DNA from: a phage
Sequence record: PZ445423.1
Direction: 5' to 3' (one strand)
Length of the DNA: 58,567 nucleotides
In this document: positions 17,588 through 58,012 of the stretch, one piece after another
How the letters are laid out: each line of letters opens with the position of its first letter
Position numbering within the stretch: position 1 is the first letter of the stretch
Translations under genes and position numbers: made by a program
Notes under the pieces: model-generated
What the model was told of the DNA's origin: nothing
Database searches by the model: none
What the model saw: only the letters and a program-made list of their open reading frames with translations

Positions 17588-17615
17588 AACCCCCGCTAAT
17601 GCGGGGTAATTTTTA
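17588..17615. terminator. bidirectional rho-independent terminator between convergent genes
   Basis: CCCCGC-taat-GCGGGG hairpin flanked by A-run (5') and T-run (3'), between the J-like gene and the - strand lipoprotein gene. Confidence 0.7.
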
Positions 17616-17846
17616 GTAATCTATAACACAGTTGGAAGGACTACCAATTCGTCGGTACTCGTGATCAATCTCATGGCACCATTGCCCGGTCATTGGAAGT
17701 TTTTCGGTATCGTAGATTAAAGAACCGTTACCGTCACGGTCTAAAGGTTTTGGAATAACACCGGAATTAGGCTTTCCTGTGTCCAAACCAGTACCGCAAG
17801 CAGATAACAGAAATGTTAATGTCAAAATTGCAATAGAACGTTTCAT
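17613..17846 (-). CDS. small outer-membrane lipoprotein, candidate receptor-blocking superinfection exclusion protein (Cor/Llp-like)
   Basis: Start at the ATG with SD AAAGGAG; signal peptide MKRSIAILTLTFLLSACG with lipobox LSAC; opposite strand, wedged between tail tip and fiber genes. Confidence 0.55.
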   Translation of the reverse strand: MKRSIAILTLTFLLSACGTGLDTGKPNSGVIPKPLDRDGNGSLIYDTEKLPMTGQWCHEIDHEYRRIGSPSNCVIDY

Positions 17847-17929
17847 CGGGACTCCTTTTAGGTTGTTGTCAAGGTTCAAGTTTAATATACTTGTTAGGTT
17901 GAGTAAGTCAATTAAATGTGGGAGAAATT

Positions 17930-19681
17930 ATGGCTACGCGCTTGCACGGTATCTTGCTGGATGGTTTGAATAAGCCAATTATTAACGCTACAGTTGCTTT
18001 GATAGCAAAAGGGAACACGATCACCGTATTGAACGGAAGCGAGGCAATATTCCGCACTGACGGATCCGGTGCGTATAATGTAACCGTACAAACAGGCCAT
18101 TATAAGGTGATCATTGGTCCGCAGGGTATTGAGCCTTATAAAGCGGGTGAAATTGTTATTTATGGTGATAGTCCTGAAGGTTCGCTCAACGGCTATTTAA
18201 TTAACTGGGCTCCGGAAGAGTTGACACCGGATGTTATTAAACAAGTCCAGCAACTTGTGGCTAACTCTGAGGAATACGCGTTACAAGCTGGTCGCTCTGC
18301 TGCGGCAGCTAAAAACGACGCAGACCGCGCAAAGACGGAAGCAGACCGTGCGGAATCTGCTGCTAACAATGCACCAGAAATCCAACCATTACCAGATGTG
18401 TGGATACCCTTTAATAATTCACTGGATATGATCACCGGATTCTCGCCGTCATACAAAAAGATTGTCATAGGTGATGATGAGATCACAATGCTAGGTGACA
18501 AGATTGTTAAGTTTAAACGCGCATCAGCCGCTACTTACATTAATAAGTCTGGCGTGTTCACAATTGCTGAAATCGATGAACCAAGATTTGAACGTGAAGG
18601 TTTATTGATTGAGGGCCAGAGAACTAACCTGCTAATCAATTCAACCAATCCGACTAAATGGAACAAGTCGTCAAATATGATCTTAGATAGATCAGGTGTA
18701 GATGATCTCGGATTTCAGTACGCAAAATTTACATTAAAACCAGAAATGGTAGGGCAAACTTCAGCGATTAACATAGTGACCGTTTCCGGCAGTAAAGGTT
18801 TTGATGTAACAGGAAATGAAAAGTATGTAACCATATCATGCAGGGCGCAAAGTGGGACTCCAAATTTAAGATGCCGATTACGATTTGAAAACTACGATGG
18901 TTCTGCTTATACATTTTTGGGTGATGCTTACCTAAATATGACAGATCTATCGATTGAAAAAACTGGCGGCGCTGCAAATCGTATTACTGCAAGGGCTGTT
19001 AAAGATAAAGCAAGCAAATGGATTTTCTTTGAGGCAACAATTAAAGCACTTGATACAGAAAATATGATCGGTGCAATGGTGCAGTATGCACCAGCAAAAG
19101 GGGGAGGTACTGGTGCAGATGATTATATTTATATTGCGACCCCTCAAGTTGAAGGCGGGGCATGTGCTTCATCCTTTATTATTACAGAAGCAACTCCAGT
19201 GACAAGGGCTAGTGATATGGTTACAATGCCAATCAAAAACAATATTTATAGCTTACCTTTCACAATACTGTGTGAGGTACATAAGAACTGGTATAAAACA
19301 CCAAACGCAGCACCTCGAGTTTTTGATACTGGCGGCCACCAAACTGGGGCGGCAATGATCCTTGGCTTTGGTTCTTCAACGGATTATGACGGATTCCCTT
19401 ATTGTGATATAGGTGGTTCAAACCGACGCGTTAATGAAAACGCTTCTCTTGAAAAAATGGTTATGGGGATGCGTGTAAAAGCAGATCAATTGACATGTGC
19501 AATAAGTAACGGACGTATATCCAGCGAAACAAAAACAACCTGGACTTACATTCAAAGCTCCGCAACTATTCGTATCGGTGGTCAGACAACGACAGGACAA
19601 GGTCATTTATTTGGCCATGTCAGAAATTTTCGAGTATGGCATAAAGCATTGACTGACCGTGAATTGAAGGAGTCTGTATGA
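17930..19681 (+). CDS. tail fiber / receptor-binding protein (putative)
   Basis: About 583 aa from the ATG at 17930 (SD GGGAGA); beta-rich N-terminus, Ala-rich coiled-coil segment, large C-terminal domain. Confidence 0.5.
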   Translation: MATRLHGILLDGLNKPIINATVALIAKGNTITVLNGSEAIFRTDGSGAYNVTVQTGHYKVIIGPQGIEPYKAGEIVIYGDSPEGSLNGYLINWAPEELTPDVIKQVQQLVANSEEYALQAGRSAAAAKNDADRAKTEADRAESAANNAPEIQPLPDVWIPFNNSLDMITGFSPSYKKIVIGDDEITMLGDKIVKFKRASAATYINKSGVFTIAEIDEPRFEREGLLIEGQRTNLLINSTNPTKWNKSSNMILDRSGVDDLGFQYAKFTLKPEMVGQTSAINIVTVSGSKGFDVTGNEKYVTISCRAQSGTPNLRCRLRFENYDGSAYTFLGDAYLNMTDLSIEKTGGAANRITARAVKDKASKWIFFEATIKALDTENMIGAMVQYAPAKGGGTGADDYIYIATPQVEGGACASSFIITEATPVTRASDMVTMPIKNNIYSLPFTILCEVHKNWYKTPNAAPRVFDTGGHQTGAAMILGFGSSTDYDGFPYCDIGGSNRRVNENASLEKMVMGMRVKADQLTCAISNGRISSETKTTWTYIQSSATIRIGGQTTTGQGHLFGHVRNFRVWHKALTDRELKESV

Positions 19682-19956
19682 AAGATATTATTTTAACATT
19701 TAAAGATAAGCAAGAATACCAAAATTTCTTGATTGGGATAAATTGGCAGGATAATGAGGAGCTTCAGGATAAGATCCTTCTGGACGAAATTGGTTACACC
19801 TATACAAACATATCCGGAAGTGAAGACGAAGAACCAGAATCAATTCGAAACGATGGTTACTTTGTTAATGTTCGTATCTTGAACTTTGACTTCAACCAGC
19901 AGATATTTGATGGATATGTGGTTACATTAGATCGACCTTTAAGAGAATGGGCGTAA
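19678..19956 (+). CDS. hypothetical protein, possible fiber assembly factor
   Basis: 92-aa ORF overlapping the upstream stop (ATGA) and lying between two fiber genes. Confidence 0.4.
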   Translation: MKDIILTFKDKQEYQNFLIGINWQDNEELQDKILLDEIGYTYTNISGSEDEEPESIRNDGYFVNVRILNFDFNQQIFDGYVVTLDRPLREWA

Positions 19957-19965
19957 GGAGCGTTT

Positions 19966-21498
19966 ATGGTAACTAAGACTATTATACCAACTGATATAAC
20001 CAAACTTAAATCTGATGTTGAAGCGATAAACGGAGAAGTATCAACATTAACGGAGGATACCTCCACGTTAAAGTCCGATGTGGGAACTCTAAAATCTGAC
20101 GTTGGCAACTTGAAAACACGAGAAATTGTGAATACAGATTGGACAGCGCAGCGACCACAGAATCAGCAGAACGATTCGTCTAGCAACTTCGGAACAGGCT
20201 ATAAATTAATCTCTCAAGGTATAGATATTGATGGAAAAACATATGCTGCGTCACTGGAAATGGTGCGGGTTAGATCTGACGGAATCATAAACGCGCGTAT
20301 TAATGTTGTTAACGCTGCTGGTGACTCAATATATTACGATTTTAATGATAATGGTGAAATTGTAGTTCCACCGAAACAAAATATTAGCTCAAGACGTTTT
20401 CGTATTGCAAATGATGGCACATCGTCAATGGATGGTCGGTTGAACATGTGGGGTGCTAGTACGCGCGCCGATGTTTTTGAATACGGCTGGAGTAGCGGTT
20501 ACGGCTTTTATATGCAGCGCAATACCGATAACTCAAGAGAGTTTCATGTAAATGGAACTATTACAGCAAATAACGTAAGTTCGGGATCCGACCGAGACTT
20601 GAAAACCGATATCGAAACTATCGCGAATGCTACCGAAAAACTGCGTAAGATATATGGATACACATATACACTTAAGTCCGACGGAATGCCTTACGCTGGT
20701 GTGATTGCACAAGAGGTTATGGAAGCGTTGCCAGAAGCGGTTGGTGGGATGACAGTTTACACTGAAGAAGATAAGGAAATAGGGACGCGTTACCTTACTG
20801 TTAACTATTCTGGTATTGTTGGTTTGCTTGTTCAGGTATGTCGTGAAGCTGGTGCGGCTGGTATCGGTGGCGCGATCGGTGGCTTAATTGGTTCCTGGAT
20901 CGGTAATGGTTGGGGTGGCAATGGTGGCTGGGGTGGTCGCGGTAACTTCGCTGGTCCGGTGGAAGTGCAAGCTTCTGTTGACACCAACGCAATTCTGCAA
21001 GCTATCAACAACGGTACTCTTCAGACCATTCAGGGTCAGAACGGTACTAACCTGACTGTTGAGCGCTCCGCTGCTTCTACCTATAACGGTATTACTCAGC
21101 AGAACACTCAAAACCTGCTGGCTTCCGTTCAGGGTTTTGCTGGTCTGAACACACAGATCCAGGGCGGCACCAGCCAAGTGCTCGCGGCTCTGTGTAACAA
21201 CGAAGCAGCTAACATTACCCGTTCCTTCCAGGCGCAGCTAGAAGCTCAGAAGTGTTGCTGCGAAACCAACCTGAACATCGAGCGTCAAGCAGAAGCTACT
21301 CGTGCGCTCCTGCGCGATCAGCACGCACAAGCGCAAGCTGTTCTGATCTGTGACCTGAAGTCCCAGTTGCAGGAAGCTCGCTTTGCAAACTCTCAGTTGG
21401 CGCAGACGGCTGGTCTTACCTGTAAGATCAATCAGGTTGAGCAGTTAGTTAACTTTAAACTGCCAACTCCTCCGACTCCTCCGACTAGCTGCTGCTAA
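19966..21498 (+). CDS. tail fiber with S74-type intramolecular chaperone domain and long low-complexity C-terminal extension
   Basis: SD AAGGAG; N-terminal LKSDVGTLKSDVGNLK repeats; GSDRDLKTDIETI...AGVIAQEVMEALPEAV matches the S74 autoproteolytic chaperone signature; ~220 more residues follow. Confidence 0.7.
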   Translation: MVTKTIIPTDITKLKSDVEAINGEVSTLTEDTSTLKSDVGTLKSDVGNLKTREIVNTDWTAQRPQNQQNDSSSNFGTGYKLISQGIDIDGKTYAASLEMVRVRSDGIINARINVVNAAGDSIYYDFNDNGEIVVPPKQNISSRRFRIANDGTSSMDGRLNMWGASTRADVFEYGWSSGYGFYMQRNTDNSREFHVNGTITANNVSSGSDRDLKTDIETIANATEKLRKIYGYTYTLKSDGMPYAGVIAQEVMEALPEAVGGMTVYTEEDKEIGTRYLTVNYSGIVGLLVQVCREAGAAGIGGAIGGLIGSWIGNGWGGNGGWGGRGNFAGPVEVQASVDTNAILQAINNGTLQTIQGQNGTNLTVERSAASTYNGITQQNTQNLLASVQGFAGLNTQIQGGTSQVLAALCNNEAANITRSFQAQLEAQKCCCETNLNIERQAEATRALLRDQHAQAQAVLICDLKSQLQEARFANSQLAQTAGLTCKINQVEQLVNFKLPTPPTPPTSCC

Positions 21499-21520
21499 TC
21501 GTTGAAGTGTGGTTAAACTA

Positions 21521-21556
21521 AAGCGCCTTTCGCTCCTCCGCTTGGGGCGCTTTTAA
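21521..21556 (+). terminator. candidate terminator/stem-loop after the fiber gene
   Basis: AGCGCC...GGCGCT stem with a 19-nt loop, followed by TTTTAAC. Confidence 0.35.
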
Positions 21557-21569
21557 CAGAGGTACTATC

Positions 21570-21938
21570 ATGAGCCACATTAAAATCGCAACGATGGGAA
21601 TGCCACGGGTCAAATTGCCTAAGGTTGCTTTACCTCGCATTAGCGTAGGTGAGCACAACCATGAACATGAGAAAGAGGAATATAAACATGCTCACTCTTA
21701 TGCTCGAGATCATGAACATATGGCAGCTATGTCAAATGTTCTTGACCGGATGGAAGAACCTCCGCATACGTGGGCGGCGTACCACGACAAGCCCGGCGGT
21801 ATGATGTCCATTGTTGAAATGGAATACCGCGAATTAATGGAGTGTAAGAAAGAAGGCGACCGCGCAGGGATCATGAAAGAGTTGACTGATCTTGCCGCAG
21901 CTTGTACTTGCGCTCTTCAAAAAATGAAAGATATGTAA
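21570..21938 (+). CDS. hypothetical His/Glu-rich protein (possibly MazG-like NTP pyrophosphatase)
   Basis: 122 aa, SD AGAGGT; EMEYRELMECKKEGD...LTDLAAA loosely resembles MazG-type EExxE helices. Confidence 0.35.
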   Translation: MSHIKIATMGMPRVKLPKVALPRISVGEHNHEHEKEEYKHAHSYARDHEHMAAMSNVLDRMEEPPHTWAAYHDKPGGMMSIVEMEYRELMECKKEGDRAGIMKELTDLAAACTCALQKMKDM

Positions 21939-21953
21939 GAATAGGAAGCCGAC

Positions 21954-22484
21954 ATGCAAAACGTAAACGCAGGAATGGGCGTAACCCAGTTCAACGGGAT
22001 GAAACCGAAAAACTCCATCAACATGGGCGGTGTTGATTGGACGTTACGTCGGGACGCTACCGATTCAACTACCATGTTCCCACACCAGAAGGTGAGCTGG
22101 CTTAATGCTGGATGTGAACCTATGGGTGATGGAAGGGTTCATTACTGTTGGATTATGGGAGTGATACCGCCTACGCCGGGCACTATCGAACGACCCGTGA
22201 ATGTGATGTATGTCGGCTTCCACCAGTTCAAGATTACAATTGCTCCAAACTCCATTAGTCAATCAGATCTTGATCGTATGCATGTTTACGTCAGCGATGG
22301 CACAGACTTCGCAGGGGATTTTATTAGTAAGTTTCTTGGTATGCAACCAGAGCAGCCTGTAGAAGCACGCGAGCATATTAGCCCGTGGCCACCCATGATT
22401 GATCAGGAAGTGCTGCAACCAAAGACCGCTCAAACGGTCCCTCAGAAACCGGAGCAGAAGGTGAAACCAAATGACGAAGAATGA
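21954..22484 (+). CDS. hypothetical protein
   Basis: 176-aa ORF with SD AGGAAG and a Pro/Gln-rich C-terminus. Confidence 0.4.
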   Translation: MQNVNAGMGVTQFNGMKPKNSINMGGVDWTLRRDATDSTTMFPHQKVSWLNAGCEPMGDGRVHYCWIMGVIPPTPGTIERPVNVMYVGFHQFKITIAPNSISQSDLDRMHVYVSDGTDFAGDFISKFLGMQPEQPVEAREHISPWPPMIDQEVLQPKTAQTVPQKPEQKVKPNDEE

Positions 22485-22755
22485 AGGTATTGATAAAGTC
22501 GTTGAAGGGCTTTCTATTCGTGCTCATGTTATAGCAGACGAAGGTCATGATCAACTTACAATTATGAAATCTGCATTCAGCGATTTTAAGTCTCTTGGAA
22601 ACTTAAGCGGGTTAATGACTGTGGTGTCGACCGGAAAATTAACCCAGCAGCAAATCAGTCTAGCTCAGCGTATTGCTGTTAAAGTTATTGCGGTACTTGG
22701 GATGATTGAAGCTGAAAAGCCCAGTTCCAAGCAGGATAACGAAAGCGACCTTTAA
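22471..22755 (+). CDS. hypothetical protein
   Basis: 94-aa ORF overlapping the upstream gene end. Confidence 0.4.
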   Translation: MTKNEGIDKVVEGLSIRAHVIADEGHDQLTIMKSAFSDFKSLGNLSGLMTVVSTGKLTQQQISLAQRIAVKVIAVLGMIEAEKPSSKQDNESDL

Positions 22756-22766
22756 GGAGGTCTACT

Positions 22767-22970
22767 ATGTGTGGTAATACTAACCGTTGCTGTCTAGGCA
22801 GTCCTGCAACACAAGTAGGTATACTTCAGGGGCAATTGGCTCAAGCAGCGTGTAATTGCAAAACTTTTCAACCAGTAGCGCCAACTCCTGTGTTTGTGAA
22901 TGCTTTTGCACCGCCTGTTTTCAATACTTTTGGCGTATACCCATACGGTGCTTTCTTTCGTATATTCTAA
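22767..22970 (+). CDS. hypothetical small Cys-rich protein
   Basis: 67 aa with 5 Cys near the N-terminus; strong SD AAGGAGG. Confidence 0.3.
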   Translation: MCGNTNRCCLGSPATQVGILQGQLAQAACNCKTFQPVAPTPVFVNAFAPPVFNTFGVYPYGAFFRIF

Positions 22971-22974
22971 GAAG

Positions 22975-23002
22975 AGAAAAAGGGGCAAACGCCTCTTTCT
23001 TT
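22975..23002. terminator. convergent-junction hairpin (candidate bidirectional terminator)
   Basis: AAAGGGGC-aaac-GCCTCTTT stem-loop between the last + strand structural ORF and the first - strand ORF. Confidence 0.4.
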
Positions 23003-23282
23003 AACGCTTATGAAAAGCTGACAGGATTGCAAGTGTTACAGCACCCAATCCAACGACGGTAGCATAAGTGAGTTGGTGTTGAACTTTAACAAAGCCATAA
23101 TAGGTGCTAGGGATGTCTACAATCCCAAACGCCATAGCAAAGCTGGTCCCAAGTAGTGCTACAGCAAGGGCGCGTAATAACGCCCTGCTCATTGCTGTAA
23201 AGCCCTTCTCATTACTATCTCCGGTCATTATAACAACAATGATTAGAAATAGCGAAACGACAACTAATAGATATTCCATCAT
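23001..23282 (-). CDS. small membrane protein
   Basis: 93 aa with three hydrophobic helices; start overlaps the upstream stop (ATGA). Confidence 0.4.
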   Translation of the reverse strand: MMEYLLVVVSLFLIIVVIMTGDSNEKGFTAMSRALLRALAVALLGTSFAMAFGIVDIPSTYYGFVKVQHQLTYATVVGLGAVTLAILSAFHKR

Positions 23283-36624: not shown

Positions 36625-37533
36625 TCAATCTTTCCCGTAATAATTAGCTACTTGATAGTTTTGACAACCAACTTTCTGTCCTTGCGTATCCACTGAGGCG
36701 GAATGGAAATTGCAATACCATGTTCCATCTTCTTTTGGCTCAAGGAATTGACATGTACGGCAGTTTACTTCCGGCATAGTTTTACGCCAGCATAGTGAGG
36801 AGTGATCGCACCATTTACATTCGAAGAAAGTGGAATCTTTAAATGCACGGTCCGGAATATCTGTAGCAATAGCAATCTGCACACCACGATCAATATACAT
36901 GTCCGCGGTAACAGGATCAAACGGAATAATTTCTGCGTAAACTTCATCGTCATTCTTGTTTACAGCAAGATATAACGCTGCGCCAAGACCTAGTTTTCGC
37001 ATGTACACGTTCATCTGTACATAGTGCTCAGGTTTAGCTTCTTTGACACCTTTAGCTTTCAGCTTTTTAAAAGACTTATCGTTATGCGTCTTCATTTCGG
37101 TAAGCACAGGCATCCCAGGCTGCACGTCCGGACAACCTATAACCACACCATCGCAGGAACCGCCAAAGTGTCCGCCAGCTTCGCTGATACGAAACTGGTG
37201 TCCGTTTTCGTCCTGCTGATAGACCTGCATACCTGCCGCGAGCAGCATAGCAATAAAGCGCGCTTCTTCCAGATGTCCGCGGTTAAACAGTCGAAGCTGG
37301 CGTCCGTCAAACTCTTTGCGTGTAGCCCAGCGATATCCATAGAAAAGCTTTCGTGCGCATTGTTGACCAATAAGGGAAGCGCCTAAGTGACTGCGGTTAC
37401 CGCTTTCAGGACGATAAGCGTCTTCAATTGTGGGAATAACTACGCCAAGATATTTACGGTAAGTCCCGCCCTGATCTTTTTGCACACCATCATTGATCGC
37501 TTGAAGTGTTTTTTCTGCAATATAAATAGCCAT
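36625..37533 (-). CDS. PD-(D/E)xK nuclease with C-terminal Cys cluster (Cas4/RecB-like exonuclease)
   Basis: 302 aa, SD AAGGT; C-terminal CKWCDHSSLC...CRTC...C consistent with an Fe-S-binding Cas4-like nuclease. Confidence 0.65.
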   Translation of the reverse strand: MAIYIAEKTLQAINDGVQKDQGGTYRKYLGVVIPTIEDAYRPESGNRSHLGASLIGQQCARKLFYGYRWATRKEFDGRQLRLFNRGHLEEARFIAMLLAAGMQVYQQDENGHQFRISEAGGHFGGSCDGVVIGCPDVQPGMPVLTEMKTHNDKSFKKLKAKGVKEAKPEHYVQMNVYMRKLGLGAALYLAVNKNDDEVYAEIIPFDPVTADMYIDRGVQIAIATDIPDRAFKDSTFFECKWCDHSSLCWRKTMPEVNCRTCQFLEPKEDGTWYCNFHSASVDTQGQKVGCQNYQVANYYGKD

Positions 37534-37598
37534 TGGAATACCTTAGAAAAATAAGCCGTCTTTCGACGGCTTATGGACACTACAGAGGGAGGGTTAAC

Positions 37599-38483
37599 TT
37601 ACTGCTGCCACGGCGGGACTGCTGCTTGTGCCGGATGCGGTTCAGCTTGCTGCTGTGGCTGAGCTTGCTGCTGAGGCGCTGCTGCCTGGCCCGGCTGCGC
37701 TACCTGCTGCGCCCACGGCTGCTGAGCTGCTTCCGGTGCTACTGGCTGTTGTACCGGAGCTTGCTGCACTGGCTGCTGTGGTGCTGCGTTTTGAGCAGGA
37801 TTATCCCACGGCTGCGGTGCGGCATTCTGCCACGGTTGTGCTGCTGCGCCCTGCTGTGGTGCTGGTTGCTGCACTGGCTGCTGAACTGGTTGCTGTTGCT
37901 GCACCGGAGCTTGCTGCTGTACAGGCGCTTGCTGTTGCTGTGCAAACGGGTTAGCTGCTGGTTGCTGAGGTGCTGCGCCCGGGAAAGCTGGCTGCTGTGC
38001 TGGCGCACCTGCACCGAACGGGTTAGCTACTGCCGCTTGAGCACCCATTGCTGGAGCACCTGCTTCTTTTTCTGCATACTTAACCGGATCGTTGATGTTA
38101 GCATAACCGTTAGGCTCGTTGCTGTCTTCATAACCTTCCTGAGAACGAACTTTCAGACGCAGGTTCAGCGGAATGTTATGCAGTTGAGAAGGAGTATCCC
38201 AGCGAATTACGCCAACCGCATGGGAAAGCGCGCCCAGTTGTTCGTATGCGATACGCACAGTATCTTCGTTGTCGTTGATAACGTTGTAACGAGCAAAGAT
38301 TTTACGACCTTTAGCAAAACCATCAATGATGCTAAACGTTACCTGGATCGCCATACCGCCATTTTTGGTCGGTTTAAATTCAGATGCTTCAATTACTGCT
38401 TTATACCAACCTTTCGGCAATGCGCCGTAAGAAGGTGCTTGATAGCTGCTCGCGTCAAAGTGGAAATTAGTTGGCATAGTCAT
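37599..38483 (-). CDS. DUF669-like ssDNA-binding protein with Gln/Pro/Ala-rich tail
   Basis: 294 aa; globular N-terminal ~140 aa followed by a long low-complexity tail (QQQAPVQQQAPVQQQQPVQQ...); coupled to the ATPase gene. Confidence 0.55.
   Translation of the reverse strand: MTMPTNFHFDASSYQAPSYGALPKGWYKAVIEASEFKPTKNGGMAIQVTFSIIDGFAKGRKIFARYNVINDNEDTVRIAYEQLGALSHAVGVIRWDTPSQLHNIPLNLRLKVRSQEGYEDSNEPNGYANINDPVKYAEKEAGAPAMGAQAAVANPFGAGAPAQQPAFPGAAPQQPAANPFAQQQQAPVQQQAPVQQQQPVQQPVQQPAPQQGAAAQPWQNAAPQPWDNPAQNAAPQQPVQQAPVQQPVAPEAAQQPWAQQVAQPGQAAAPQQQAQPQQQAEPHPAQAAVPPWQQ
37610..38000. repeat. low-complexity CTGCTG/GGCTGC-type DNA repeats
   Basis: Degenerate tandem triplet repeats encoding the Q/P/A tail; the complementary strand gives a spurious 317-aa ORF. 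Confidence 0.6.
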
Positions 38484-56230: not shown

Positions 56231-56491
56231 ATGACTACATTCAGTCACCTGATCCCACCTGCTTATCATAGTAAGGTAGTTGACCACGGGACGCATGTTG
56301 TAATTGGTGGCGAAATCTTTATCACAGATAACGAGGAAATCGCCATTGCAATTATTGACAGCACTCAGCATGACTTTATGGTTATCCTGCAACACGAACC
56401 AGATAACTTCACTTTTTACTCCAGCTACGGGGTCGATAAAGGTGGAAAAAGCCTTGTTAGCTGGTACATTAGCGAGTGGTTTGACGGGTAA
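56231..56491 (+). CDS. hypothetical protein
   Basis: 86-aa ORF directly after the upstream stop. Confidence 0.4.
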   Translation: MTTFSHLIPPAYHSKVVDHGTHVVIGGEIFITDNEEIAIAIIDSTQHDFMVILQHEPDNFTFYSSYGVDKGGKSLVSWYISEWFDG

Positions 56492-56573
56492 TCTCCTTAG
56501 ATCAATTCTCCTTGCGCCGTATCAAGTTTCTCTGTTACCCTTGAGTGGTTCATGTCAAGCGGAGGAACTCGAT

Positions 56574-57011
56574 ATGGCACTTCAACCTCGTGGTATTCGT
56601 AATAACAATCCAGGCAATATTCGCTGGGGTGATAATTGGCAGGGCTTAGTTCCTGCTGATAAGCGAACCGATAAATCTTTTGCGCAATTCACGCAACCGA
56701 TTTACGGCATTCGTGCACTAGCGAAAATCCTGACAAACTACACCAAACGTGAAGGCTTACCCAATGTGGGTAAGAAAAACATCGACACTGTACGTGAAAT
56801 CATCGCTCGCTGGGCACCGCCTAACGAAAACGATACGGAAGCGTATATTCGCTCTGTTGCCAAAGCAATTGGTGTTCAACCTAACGATCCAATTAATGTC
56901 TTCGACAAGGCAATTATGTCAGGATTGGTGAAAGCAATCATTCGTCATGAAAATGGCATGATGCCCTATACCGACGACGTAATTAACCGCGCTATTGCAA
57001 TGGTACTTTAA
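56574..57011 (+). CDS. putative endolysin / cell-wall hydrolase (family unresolved)
   Basis: 145 aa from the ATG at 56574 (SD GGAGGAA), immediately upstream of the holin/spanin genes; contains RGIRNNNPGNIRWG. Confidence 0.45.
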   Translation: MALQPRGIRNNNPGNIRWGDNWQGLVPADKRTDKSFAQFTQPIYGIRALAKILTNYTKREGLPNVGKKNIDTVREIIARWAPPNENDTEAYIRSVAKAIGVQPNDPINVFDKAIMSGLVKAIIRHENGMMPYTDDVINRAIAMVL

Positions 57012-57047: not shown

Positions 57048-57392
57048 ATGTTCAATTCACCCAACGAACATTGGGCAGTTCTAGCGGGGTTTGCGTTTAT
57101 CTCCCTCATTGGGGGAGCTCTCGGTTATGTCATGCGTACAATAGACGCTGGTAAGAAAGTACGGGCAAGCATTGCATTTCTTGAAGGCTTATCCGCCGCT
57201 TTCTTTGGCGTTATAATGTATGCGATCTACAGGGAGTTTAACATCAGCCTTTGGTTCGCTTTTGGCCTTGCTGGCCTATTTGCTTGGGCAGGTTCACGTG
57301 CTACGCTAAAAGCCCTAACGTCGCTTATAGCTTCACGGACAGGGATCAAACTCGATTCAGGGGACTGCAAACATGAAAACGATTCTAAATAA
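57048..57392 (+). CDS. holin (putative, 3 TM)
   Basis: 114 aa with three hydrophobic helices and a charged C-terminus; between the endolysin candidate and the spanins. Confidence 0.55.
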   Translation: MFNSPNEHWAVLAGFAFISLIGGALGYVMRTIDAGKKVRASIAFLEGLSAAFFGVIMYAIYREFNISLWFAFGLAGLFAWAGSRATLKALTSLIASRTGIKLDSGDCKHENDSK

Positions 57393-57849
57393 CTTCTTCG
57401 GTTTTATAAAAACTAAACCGCGTCTGTTTATCGAGTATTTGATGATCGGCGCGGTTGTGTTTTTATGCGGGGTGGCTGCATACTTGTGGTCACAGAACGA
57501 GCTCAGCAAAACTAATTTAAATCATGCTGAGCAAAGACTAACCGTTGTAGAACGGGACAATGCAAAGCTGGGCGAAGCTGTTGTATTTCTTGCATCCCAA
57601 CGGGAGAAGGATACTGAATCCTATCGAAAATTGGCTTCAGCGATTGAAAGTGAGCAACATAACCACAGGTTGCTTCAGGACAAATTAAAAGCACTGGAGA
57701 AAAGCAATGCCGACGTCAAAGCTTATCTTAATGAGCGTGTTCCTGATGATTTGCGCAGGCTGCTCGACGGAGATACAACCTCCACCACAGTCACAGATAG
57801 TCAAGATAAAACTTCCGGCTCATCTGTTGGTAGAATGTCGGGAAGTTGA
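57373..57849 (+). CDS. inner-membrane spanin (Rz-like)
   Basis: 158 aa; N-terminal TM helix then a coiled-coil-like periplasmic domain; contains the o-spanin gene in another frame. Confidence 0.6.
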   Translation: MKTILNNFFGFIKTKPRLFIEYLMIGAVVFLCGVAAYLWSQNELSKTNLNHAEQRLTVVERDNAKLGEAVVFLASQREKDTESYRKLASAIESEQHNHRLLQDKLKALEKSNADVKAYLNERVPDDLRRLLDGDTTSTTVTDSQDKTSGSSVGRMSGS

Positions 57850-58012
57850 TAAATATCCTTTGGTTTATACAAGGGACATTATCCAACGTTTGCAGGATAC
57901 AGAAACAGCTCTGACTGAATGTAAACTGAGGGTTAAGGAAATCATACGCTATGAAGCTGAAAATGTTTCGCTTGATTTTGTAGGATCAAGCAATTATATT
58001 CAGCCTAAATAG
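57707..58012 (+). CDS. outer-membrane spanin lipoprotein (Rz1-like), embedded in the i-spanin gene
   Basis: 101 aa; signal peptide MPTSKLILMSVFLMICAGC with lipobox-like Cys, then a Pro-rich stretch EIQPPPQ. Confidence 0.65.
   Translation: MPTSKLILMSVFLMICAGCSTEIQPPPQSQIVKIKLPAHLLVECREVDKYPLVYTRDIIQRLQDTETALTECKLRVKEIIRYEAENVSLDFVGSSNYIQPK

Follow-up and report, generated by a model that had tools for sequence, protein, structure and literature searches.

An outlier tail-fibre reading frame in a Seuratvirus-like phage as a very probable deletion-derived fusion with a CSP1_021-type gene

Why does a chaperone domain that normally closes a phage fibre protein lie in the middle of one? The question is raised by an open reading frame (ORF) of 510 amino acids (aa) at positions 19966-21498 of a phage DNA of 58,567 nucleotides (nt; record PZ445423.1), the whole of which is called the window here. 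A preliminary description, made from the letters alone, read the ORF as a tail fibre with an internal S74-type chaperone and, behind it, an unusual C-terminal tail of its own; the ORF and all of the strings quoted from it are present. For the tail, comparison with relatives overturned that reading: it matches a separate, widely conserved gene, and it is very probable that the ORF is an in-frame fusion of two normally separate neighbouring genes, joined by a deletion between 9-nt repeats. By the same comparison, the deletion was most likely recent and mediated by microhomology. The genome in the window is Seuratvirus-like (Queuovirinae), and its replication region is ~96% identical to those of vB_Eco_SLUR75 and SLUR26.

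The Pfam profile Peptidase_S74 (PF13884) matched aa 208-259 of the ORF (E 1e-14; 55 bits, the curated cut-off being 22 bits). The SDRDLK motif (S208, D209, R210, D211, L212, and K213) was invariant in an alignment with 28 homologues, and the Ser-Lys catalytic dyad of the ICA domain (S-x4-K in SDRxLK) is present as Ser208/Lys213, corresponding to S911/K916 of endoNF (PMC8326128). The S74 chaperone of the preliminary description was therefore confirmed in its core and its catalytic Ser and Lys, but the domain is incomplete, its C-terminal helix being missing. Beyond the S74 region the ORF continues for 216 residues. The catalytic Ser lies 303 aa from the C-terminus, as against 101-144 aa (median 137) in S74 homologues (best 120 of 662; one truncated fragment was set aside, leaving 119). 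The domain is thus not at the extreme C-terminus, unlike that of ICA-domain fibres and spikes; that S74 normally ends fibre proteins, and that a cut at Ser208 would leave a C-terminal fragment of 303 aa, were both correctly stated. After the domain the order is a Gly/Trp-rich stretch, a Gln/Ala/Asn-rich region with a CCC motif, and a PTPPTPPTSCC end. Low complexity is confined to aa ~295-330 (17 Gly within the 35 residues of aa 296-330); the extension is the long outlier that had been described, but apart from that stretch it consists of a conserved protein family, phrog_9288. The parts of the ORF are as follows.

19966-21498, + strand: fusion ORF, 510 aa, ATG start; a short fibre whose S74 chaperone is truncated runs into a CSP1_021-like protein without its first 18 residues.
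19966-20586, + strand: would-be mature short fibre or branch, aa 1-207; 89% identical to the free-standing 326-aa protein P0001.
20587-20847, + strand: truncated S74 intramolecular chaperone, aa 208-294, containing the PF13884 match.
20587-20589, + strand: codon of Ser208.
20602-20604, + strand: codon of Lys213.
20809-20847, + strand: remnant of the final chaperone helix, aa 282-294 (~13 residues).
20843-20851, + strand: deletion junction with one copy of the 9-nt microhomology GTGAAGCTG, from a three-way comparison of the window, contig L006, and CAjan.
20845-21495, + strand: CSP1_021/phrog_9288 part (antiholin-like membrane protein family), aa 294-510, equivalent to residues 19-235 of the family.
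20848-20955, + strand: Gly/Trp-rich segment, aa 295-330, which holds the predicted transmembrane (TM) segment of CSP1_021.
21091-21450, + strand: long predicted helix, aa 376-495, Gln/Ala/Asn-rich (AlphaFold models; conserved columns in the family alignment).
21253-21261, + strand: conserved CCC motif, aa 430-432; Cys462 and Cys486 lie on the same predicted helix.
21460-21495, + strand: C-terminal LPTPPTPPTSCC, aa 499-510, the conserved family end with Ser replacing Gly (family alignment).

In megablast searches the ORF fell into two clean halves, and no phage record covered 80% of it. Nucleotides 73-886 of the ORF matched lateral tail-fibre genes (85% in HMD-P4 and 79% in the Nonagvirus ChristophMerian), whereas nt 875-1533 matched, at 95-98% nt identity, a separate gene annotated as a hypothetical protein in Greed, CAjan, Skure, Dru_SM1, and others.

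The N-terminal half belongs to a fibre cassette. Residues 143-295 matched the tail-fibre family phrog_4563 (PHROG profiles), and the closest relative of aa 1-294 was P0001 (326 aa, 89% identical), encoded on a 61-kb metagenomic Seuratvirus-like contig, L006. There, the fibre cassette is followed by a separate 233-aa phrog_9288 gene, which is the parent arrangement in its unfused form. The T5-type lateral tail fibre cassette of three genes (phrog_1419, phrog_1361, and phrog_4563) is collinear in the window and is also found in VogelGryff and Dru_SM1. Its first two genes in the window are given here.

17918-19681, + strand: primary lateral tail fibre, 587 aa, first cassette gene, with an N-terminal tail-attachment domain and a T5-type distal part.
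19678-19956, + strand: 92-aa protein, second cassette gene (phrog_1361, E 4e-36).

The 587-aa fibre has the Seuratvirus-type anchor (Pfam phage_tail_N at aa 5-137, E 6e-23) and matches phrog_1419 (E 6e-260), and its C-terminal half aligns with the 782-aa fibre of HMD-P4, a T5-like Salmonella phage. A homologue of the 92-aa gene occupies the same position in HMD-P4, Dru_SM1, L006, and VogelGryff. The HMD-P4 cassette comprises the 782-aa fibre, a 91-aa protein, and a 333-aa S74-terminated protein ending LLVQVCREADDRITKLETEIEELKILVNKLISQ. This last protein ("lateral tail fiber chaperone"), P0001, and a 346-aa "tail fiber domain-containing protein" of an E. coli prophage are examples of the free-standing, S74-terminated short fibres of ~320-350 aa in phrog_4563. 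Residues 1-294 of the window ORF are collinear with these fibres (80-89% identical to the closest) and share with them the third-gene position after the long fibre and the ~91-aa gene, the N-terminal peptide, and SDRDLK. The free-standing fibres, however, carry 23-38 residues (the terminal coiled-coil helix) beyond the point at which the window ORF switches, and these residues are absent from the window.

Within aa 1-207 we observed the conserved peptide MVTKTIIPTDI at the N-terminus, a region of helical repeats (aa 7-49), and, distally, a beta-rich domain (aa 81-202). In the AlphaFold model of the fusion, the helix at aa 7-49 had a confidence (pLDDT) of 83-85, and strands ran across aa 81-202. 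The same distal module tips the single-chain lateral fibre of ChristophMerian. Given the shared cassette position, the P0001 relative, and the ChristophMerian tip module, residues 1-207 are judged to be a genuine short fibre or branch tip.

The C-terminal half belongs elsewhere. Residues 293-510 matched phrog_9288 (E 4e-118, profile positions 15-233 of 234; PHROG profiles), and residues 294-510 were identical at 211/217 positions (97%) to residues 19-235 of CSP1_021, the product of a 708-bp gene of Seuratvirus CSP1. The CSP1 gene was matched to CSP1_021 of Kim & Ryu 2025 by gene order and by the sizes 3,081/708/369/531 bp, and it bears the tag CSP1_009 in GenBank KY982929. In CAjan, the 235-aa gene (starting MSDMTLLPTNLGGDGFGGEAGAAGIGG) begins 171 nt past the tail-fibre stop. 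All 169 relatives of phrog_9288 that were found are free-standing (the 120 listed measure 197-270 aa), and the family is likewise free-standing in 160 phage records. Distant relatives also begin at profile position 1 (exhaustive representative profile search, 129 relatives); the three long hits of that search (558, 818, and 1326 aa) were unrelated repeat proteins. The family alignment placed in the C part the phrog_9288 motifs (Gly-rich TM segment, QGFAGLNT, CCCETNLNIERQ, LICDLK, and PTPPTPP). The C part has neither its own start nor the conserved family N-terminus MSDMTLLP, in which M1, D3, M4, T5, L6, and P8 are conserved at a level of at least 90%. A combined alignment of both parent families mis-aligned the N-termini and was discarded.

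With CSP1_021 the C part also has in common the PTPPTPP-x-CC end, the downstream homologues of CSP1_022 and CSP1_023, and a conserved holin elsewhere in the genome. Unlike CSP1_021, it has lost the start codon, the leader, and the first 18 residues, and its translation is confined to the C-terminal part of a fibre/chaperone protein. The fibre encoded upstream in the window also differs in type from CSP1_020, the two S74 regions sharing 27/104 identical residues. Relative to CAjan, the C part shows 20 synonymous and 1 nonsynonymous codon differences; the sole amino-acid difference is Gly to Ser at aa 508 (window 21487-21489) in the ...PTGCC end, a position at which every CC-ending family member in the alignment carries Gly.

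The most hydrophobic 19-mer of the ORF is aa 295-313 (AGAAGIGGAIGGLIGSWIG; Kyte-Doolittle mean 1.27), and it contains a GxxxG repeat (G301, G305, G309, and G313; G-x3-G-x3-G-x3-G). This Gly-rich stretch is the predicted membrane segment known from CSP1_021. For the phrog_9288 family, AlphaFold gave a single long helix with a disordered N-terminus (pLDDT 57). For the 510-aa fusion, modelled as a monomer and hence with trimerisation outside the reach of the model, pLDDT was 55 overall, <50 across aa 207-376, and up to 90 at aa 440-460. Structure prediction of the C part, which had been proposed as a check, yielded the long helix of aa 376-495 at moderate confidence, and neither model reached the quality required for a fold search. 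Against solved structures, the family profile of the C part gave chance-level hits alone (E at least 0.37), and Pfam assigned the C part to no family, DUF6160 being sub-threshold only. A spanin-like reading of the C part, with its TM segment, coiled coil, Cys residues, and Pro-rich end, was rejected, the window having its own Rz/Rz1 pair.

How the halves came together can be read from the alignment with L006. The stretch L006 4117-5886 pairs with window 19082-20851 at 89%, and from L006 6197 on the alignment resumes at window 20845, so that nothing in the window corresponds to L006 5887-6196. The sequence across the junction is TGTCGTGAAGCTGGTGCGG in the window, as compared with TGTCGTGAAGCTGACGAT in the fibre gene and GGTGGTGAAGCTGGTGCGG in the downstream gene of CAjan. 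The string GTGAAGCTG occurs in both parent contexts in the same codon phase and is found once only in the window. Since the GAA GCT codons within it (E294 and A295) are common to both parent genes and in phase, recombination or slippage at this point yields an in-frame product automatically. The lost segment comprised the last ~32 codons of the fibre gene (most of the coiled-coil helix) with the stop codon, a strong terminator hairpin (L006 5999-6018), a ~130-nt leader with a ribosome-binding site that is conserved among Seuratviruses, and, from the downstream gene, the opening 18 codons, a nearly invariant part of the family. We found no terminator-like site on the + strand of window 20470-23100, no in-frame start with a convincing Shine-Dalgarno sequence ahead of the C part, and neither a second copy of either gene nor a remnant of the deleted segment anywhere in the window. 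A consensus scan of the deleted leader found no sigma-70 promoter, so loss of a promoter is only a possibility.

The exact fusion protein is not on record, and none of the best 120 of 662 homologues covers >58% of it. A degenerate pattern of the junction had no match in IMG/VR, JGI metagenomes, or GTDB genomes and one match in the window. By these searches, the fusion is a one-off singleton in the collections covered.

The deletion bears directly on whether the chaperone can work. All of the homologues aligned (28/28) continue as RE[AST]DDRIT.LE.E..LK for 23-38 residues past the junction, whereas the window switches to AGAAGIGG after E294. In alignment, the lost helix coincides with the terminal helix of 6F45, a phage chaperone domain of solved structure. 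The window keeps ~13 of the ~37 helix residues and lacks ~60%, so that the fusion ORF has no complete C-terminal coiled-coil helix of the ICA type. The MyRF domain has the same fold as the endoNF chaperone (3GW6), with the coiled-coil helix as the main driver of trimerisation, and single substitutions at a/d positions of that helix block both trimerisation and self-cleavage (PMC8326128). Because the deletion removed the trimerising helix, cleavage at Ser208 cannot be assumed. With the ICA domains of endoNF (3GW6), T5 pb1 (4UW8), and S16 gp37 (6F45), the window domain shares the Peptidase_S74 match, the Ser-Lys dyad, and the place right after a beta-rich fibre tip; it differs from them in not being C-terminal and in its truncated last helix.

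What the second parent gene does is indicated by the study of CSP1. In CSP1C, a spontaneous deletion of 4,672 bp between 14-bp direct repeats removed the S74-bearing fibre CSP1_020, CSP1_021, CSP1_022, and part of CSP1_023, and it changed turbid plaques to clear ones with adsorption unchanged (PMC13577005). Lysis suppression was restored by CSP1_020, CSP1_021, and CSP1_022 together and was overcome by excess holin or by collapse of the proton motive force; for CSP1_021, a single transmembrane segment was predicted, and a two-hybrid assay showed interaction with the holin (PMC13577005). The earlier guess that the Gly-rich segment is membrane-active holds insofar as CSP1_021 has a predicted TM segment there and binds holin, but the reported activity is restraint of the holin, not attack on a membrane. 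The deletions in CSP1C and in the window both lie between short direct repeats in the fibre/CSP1_021 region of a Seuratvirus. They differ in size and outcome: ~320 nt were lost in the window, between 9-nt rather than 14-bp repeats, and most of both genes was kept as a fusion.

The genes with which CSP1_021 acts, or is presumed to act, are otherwise in place in the window.

21570-21938, + strand: CSP1_022 homologue, 122 aa (phrog_9157; 120/122 identical), the second gene required for lysis suppression in CSP1 (PMC13577005).
21954-22484, + strand: CSP1_023 homologue, 176 aa (phrog_8329; 174/176 identical).
57048-57392, + strand: holin, 114 aa (phrog_785, E 8e-25), the presumed partner of the CSP1_021-like part.
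56304-57011, 57373-57849, and 57707-58012: endolysin, Rz, and Rz1, which form an intact lysis cassette around the holin.

The CSP1_022- and CSP1_023-type genes (98-99% identical) follow the C part as they do in the phrog_9288 family, and the lysis cassette is 99.2% identical to that of CAjan and 91.4% identical to that of CSP1.

Taken together, we favour, with a probability of roughly 0.6, the reading that the fusion is a lesion by which the chaperone, the antiholin-like protein, or both are impaired, rather than a novel type of fibre. The sequence comparison itself shows the deletion origin; the consequences for function we infer from it. The parent phage would have carried a short lateral fibre of ~326 aa with a complete S74 chaperone; behind it would have come a terminator, a conserved leader of ~130 nt, and, as a gene of its own, a CSP1_021-family member of ~235 aa. 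Slippage or illegitimate recombination between the two copies of GTGAAGCTG would then have removed ~320 nt. The truncated chaperone would be expected to trimerise poorly, and both folding of the short fibre and cleavage at Ser208 would be impaired. The CSP1_021-like part would be made only as the tail of a cytoplasmic passenger of 294 residues, without its own N-terminus, and would probably be unable to adopt its normal membrane topology or to restrain the holin. In the CSP1_021 family, an acidic N-tail of 19 residues and an Arg after the hydrophobic segment suggest, by the positive-inside rule, an N-out/C-in orientation; the large domain would then be cytoplasmic, together with its cytoplasmic partners, and an N-terminal passenger of 294 residues would be incompatible with it. 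The expected result would be a phage without this fibre branch and with clear, fast-lysing plaques like those of CSP1C, both losses being tolerated on laboratory hosts.

Several points weigh against the lesion. The lysis-suppression role of the CSP1_021 family rests on one study (PMC13577005), the native topology of CSP1_021 is itself a prediction, and the measurements that make the helix important come from MyRF and not from the lineage of the window phage. The fusion is in frame and its C part is undecayed, as the low number of nonsynonymous differences from CAjan indicates, a pattern that fits a very recent event but also continued selection. The dyad, ~87 chaperone residues, and the first ~13 residues of the helix are intact, and the GxxxG-rich hydrophobic segment with the long predicted helix might replace the lost helix in trimerisation.

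The setting fits a tolerated loss. The fibre/CSP1_021 locus is lesion-prone and dispensable, other Seuratvirus isolates having independent lesions there. In VogelGryff (MZ501110, L013:2365-3030), the CSP1_021-family gene is truncated after ...DQHAQA; also missing are the CSP1_022- to CSP1_025-type genes and two leftward genes, an independent deletion of ~2 kb. In Skure (L003:4698-4700) and SeppeHuegi (L012, in codon 83 of a gene that starts at 552), which come from Denmark and Switzerland, TAG replaces the CAG codon of the invariant Gln83 of the CSP1_021-family gene; apart from this the ORF is intact and its protein identical to that of CAjan, and two coding sequences are annotated. This TAG could be a shared knock-out allele or could be read through. 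Lateral fibres are regarded as non-essential on K-12. Given the repeated lesions and the non-essential lateral fibres, a further small deletion comes as no surprise; it would be tolerated, or would even be at an advantage where clear plaques are picked.

The strongest alternative, which we consider unlikely, is that the fusion works as a self-cleaving, membrane-tethered precursor in the manner of MYRF, a eukaryotic membrane-bound transcription factor. The Gly zipper would anchor the protein in the inner membrane, and the remaining chaperone, aided by the segments downstream, would trimerise and cut at Gly207|Ser208; the folded short fibre would be freed for the virion, and aa 208-510 would stay in the membrane and still modulate the holin. 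The order of parts (cargo, S74, TM segment, C-terminal domain) is that of MYRF, whose S74-type domain frees an N-terminal part from a membrane anchor and so provides a precedent. The S208/K213 dyad and the core of the domain are kept, the frame is preserved with no decay seen in the C part, and the GxxxG repeat with the ~120-residue predicted helix could oligomerise. In addition, the S74 fibre and CSP1_021 are both needed for one function in CSP1, so that a fusion of interacting partners is conceivable. The likeness to MYRF is, however, one of part order, with no sequence relationship outside the S74 core; MYRF is a conserved, selected architecture that keeps the full coiled-coil helix before its membrane segment, whereas the window helix is cut and its fusion is a singleton, found once among the 169 and 662 homologues of the two halves (120 listed in each case) and in three collections of contigs. 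The trimerising helix has lost ~60% of its length, and it is in that helix that point mutations of MyRF abolish cleavage; the conserved N-terminus of the antiholin-like family is missing; and AlphaFold confidence is below 50 across aa 207-376. The preserved frame had a prior of 1 in 3 and is automatic here, given the shared GAA GCT codons.

An extension of this idea uses the fusion as a "Rosetta stone": if it is functional, the natural ligand of the CSP1_021-type protein might be the chaperone fragment left over from fibre maturation. The proposal, which we hold to be rather improbable, is prompted by the requirement in CSP1 for the fibre, CSP1_021, and CSP1_022 together, with the role of the fibre unexplained, and by the fact that the window joins exactly the chaperone fragment to a CSP1_021-type protein. 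Were it true, the amount of finished fibre would feed the holin clock as an assembly checkpoint on lysis timing, hard-wired here as a MYRF-like precursor.

It is very doubtful that the junction is an artefact of assembly or consensus, or a minority deletion variant of a dominant phage with separate genes. Such a view would account for a junction that is unique in all collections, and deletion variants do arise spontaneously at this locus during propagation. A 9-nt repeat, however, is far below the k-mer length of assemblers, and no collapse is expected there; one repeat copy was kept and the flanks are clean (89% and 95-98% identity to relatives), as is characteristic of a real microhomology deletion, and no trace of the deleted segment survives in the window. 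We give almost no credence to the further idea that the fibre evolved an appendage which S74 cleavage sets free as a Gly-rich effector active on membranes or cell walls: an S74 domain is present and the Gly-rich segment is membrane-related in CSP1_021, but the part in question shows 97% identity to a gene that, in every relative, stands apart and has a start, a leader, and a conserved N-terminus of its own. The activity reported for it is to restrain, from within the cell, the holin of the phage itself, and nothing points to a fused architecture that evolved and was conserved.

Further observations were made around the two parent genes. In the cassette, the 587-aa primary fibre (window 17930-18628) is without ~376 nt of Ala-rich shaft (L006 2970-3345) that is present in the fibres of L006 (709 aa) and HMD-P4 (782 aa); it is the second change of length observed in the cassette. 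In Dru_SM1 (L005:7517-7670), the third lateral-fibre gene extends into the conserved leader that precedes the CSP1_021-family gene and has its stop within it, which places a cassette-exchange boundary ~60 nt from the window junction; the Dru_SM1 record gives the CSP1_021-family gene an over-long start (276 aa). Between the J-like tail-tip gene and the fibre gene, window 17613-17879 (- strand) holds a small lipoprotein gene (MKRSIAILTLTFLLSAC, phrog_12984), which may serve superinfection exclusion, judged from its position. The same slot is filled by a 321-aa DUF6453 gene in L006 and ChristophMerian.

Downstream, a block of four genes (~233, 102-122, 163-185, and 79-94 aa; L008, L009, L010, and L011) travels together in aaroes, Yersinia phage P400, 9NA-like Salmonella phages, and Seuratviruses; phage aaroes is a Hanrivervirus. 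An obligatory upstream S74 fibre for this block was considered and rejected: aaroes has one, but P400 and the 9NA-like (Solent-like) phages have no adjacent S74 protein. In the window, the conserved block ends, after the CSP1_021- to CSP1_024-type genes, with a Cys/Gln/Pro-rich ORF of 67 aa at 22767-22970 (+ strand; MCGNTNRCCLGS; phrog_25697), the composition of which resembles that of the C part of the fusion. Farther away, the 1-kb bin at window 37001-38000 has a G+C content of 0.539, compared with 0.39-0.50 elsewhere in the window.

Both components of the ORF are of already known kinds; what is new is the junction itself, which gives the MYRF order of parts. As a lesion, the fusion is ordinary biology and is useful for annotation, the "tail fibre with a strange tail" being a pair of genes that a microhomology deletion has joined. 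In addition, it identifies the fibre/CSP1_021 region as a place where deletions and knock-outs recur in cultured Seuratviruses, a point of relevance to plaque phenotype and to the selection of phages for therapy or as references. A functional fusion would provide the first phage S74 self-cleaving domain placed before a membrane anchor, in the MYRF layout, and it would offer a direct handle on the need for a tail fibre in lysis suppression.

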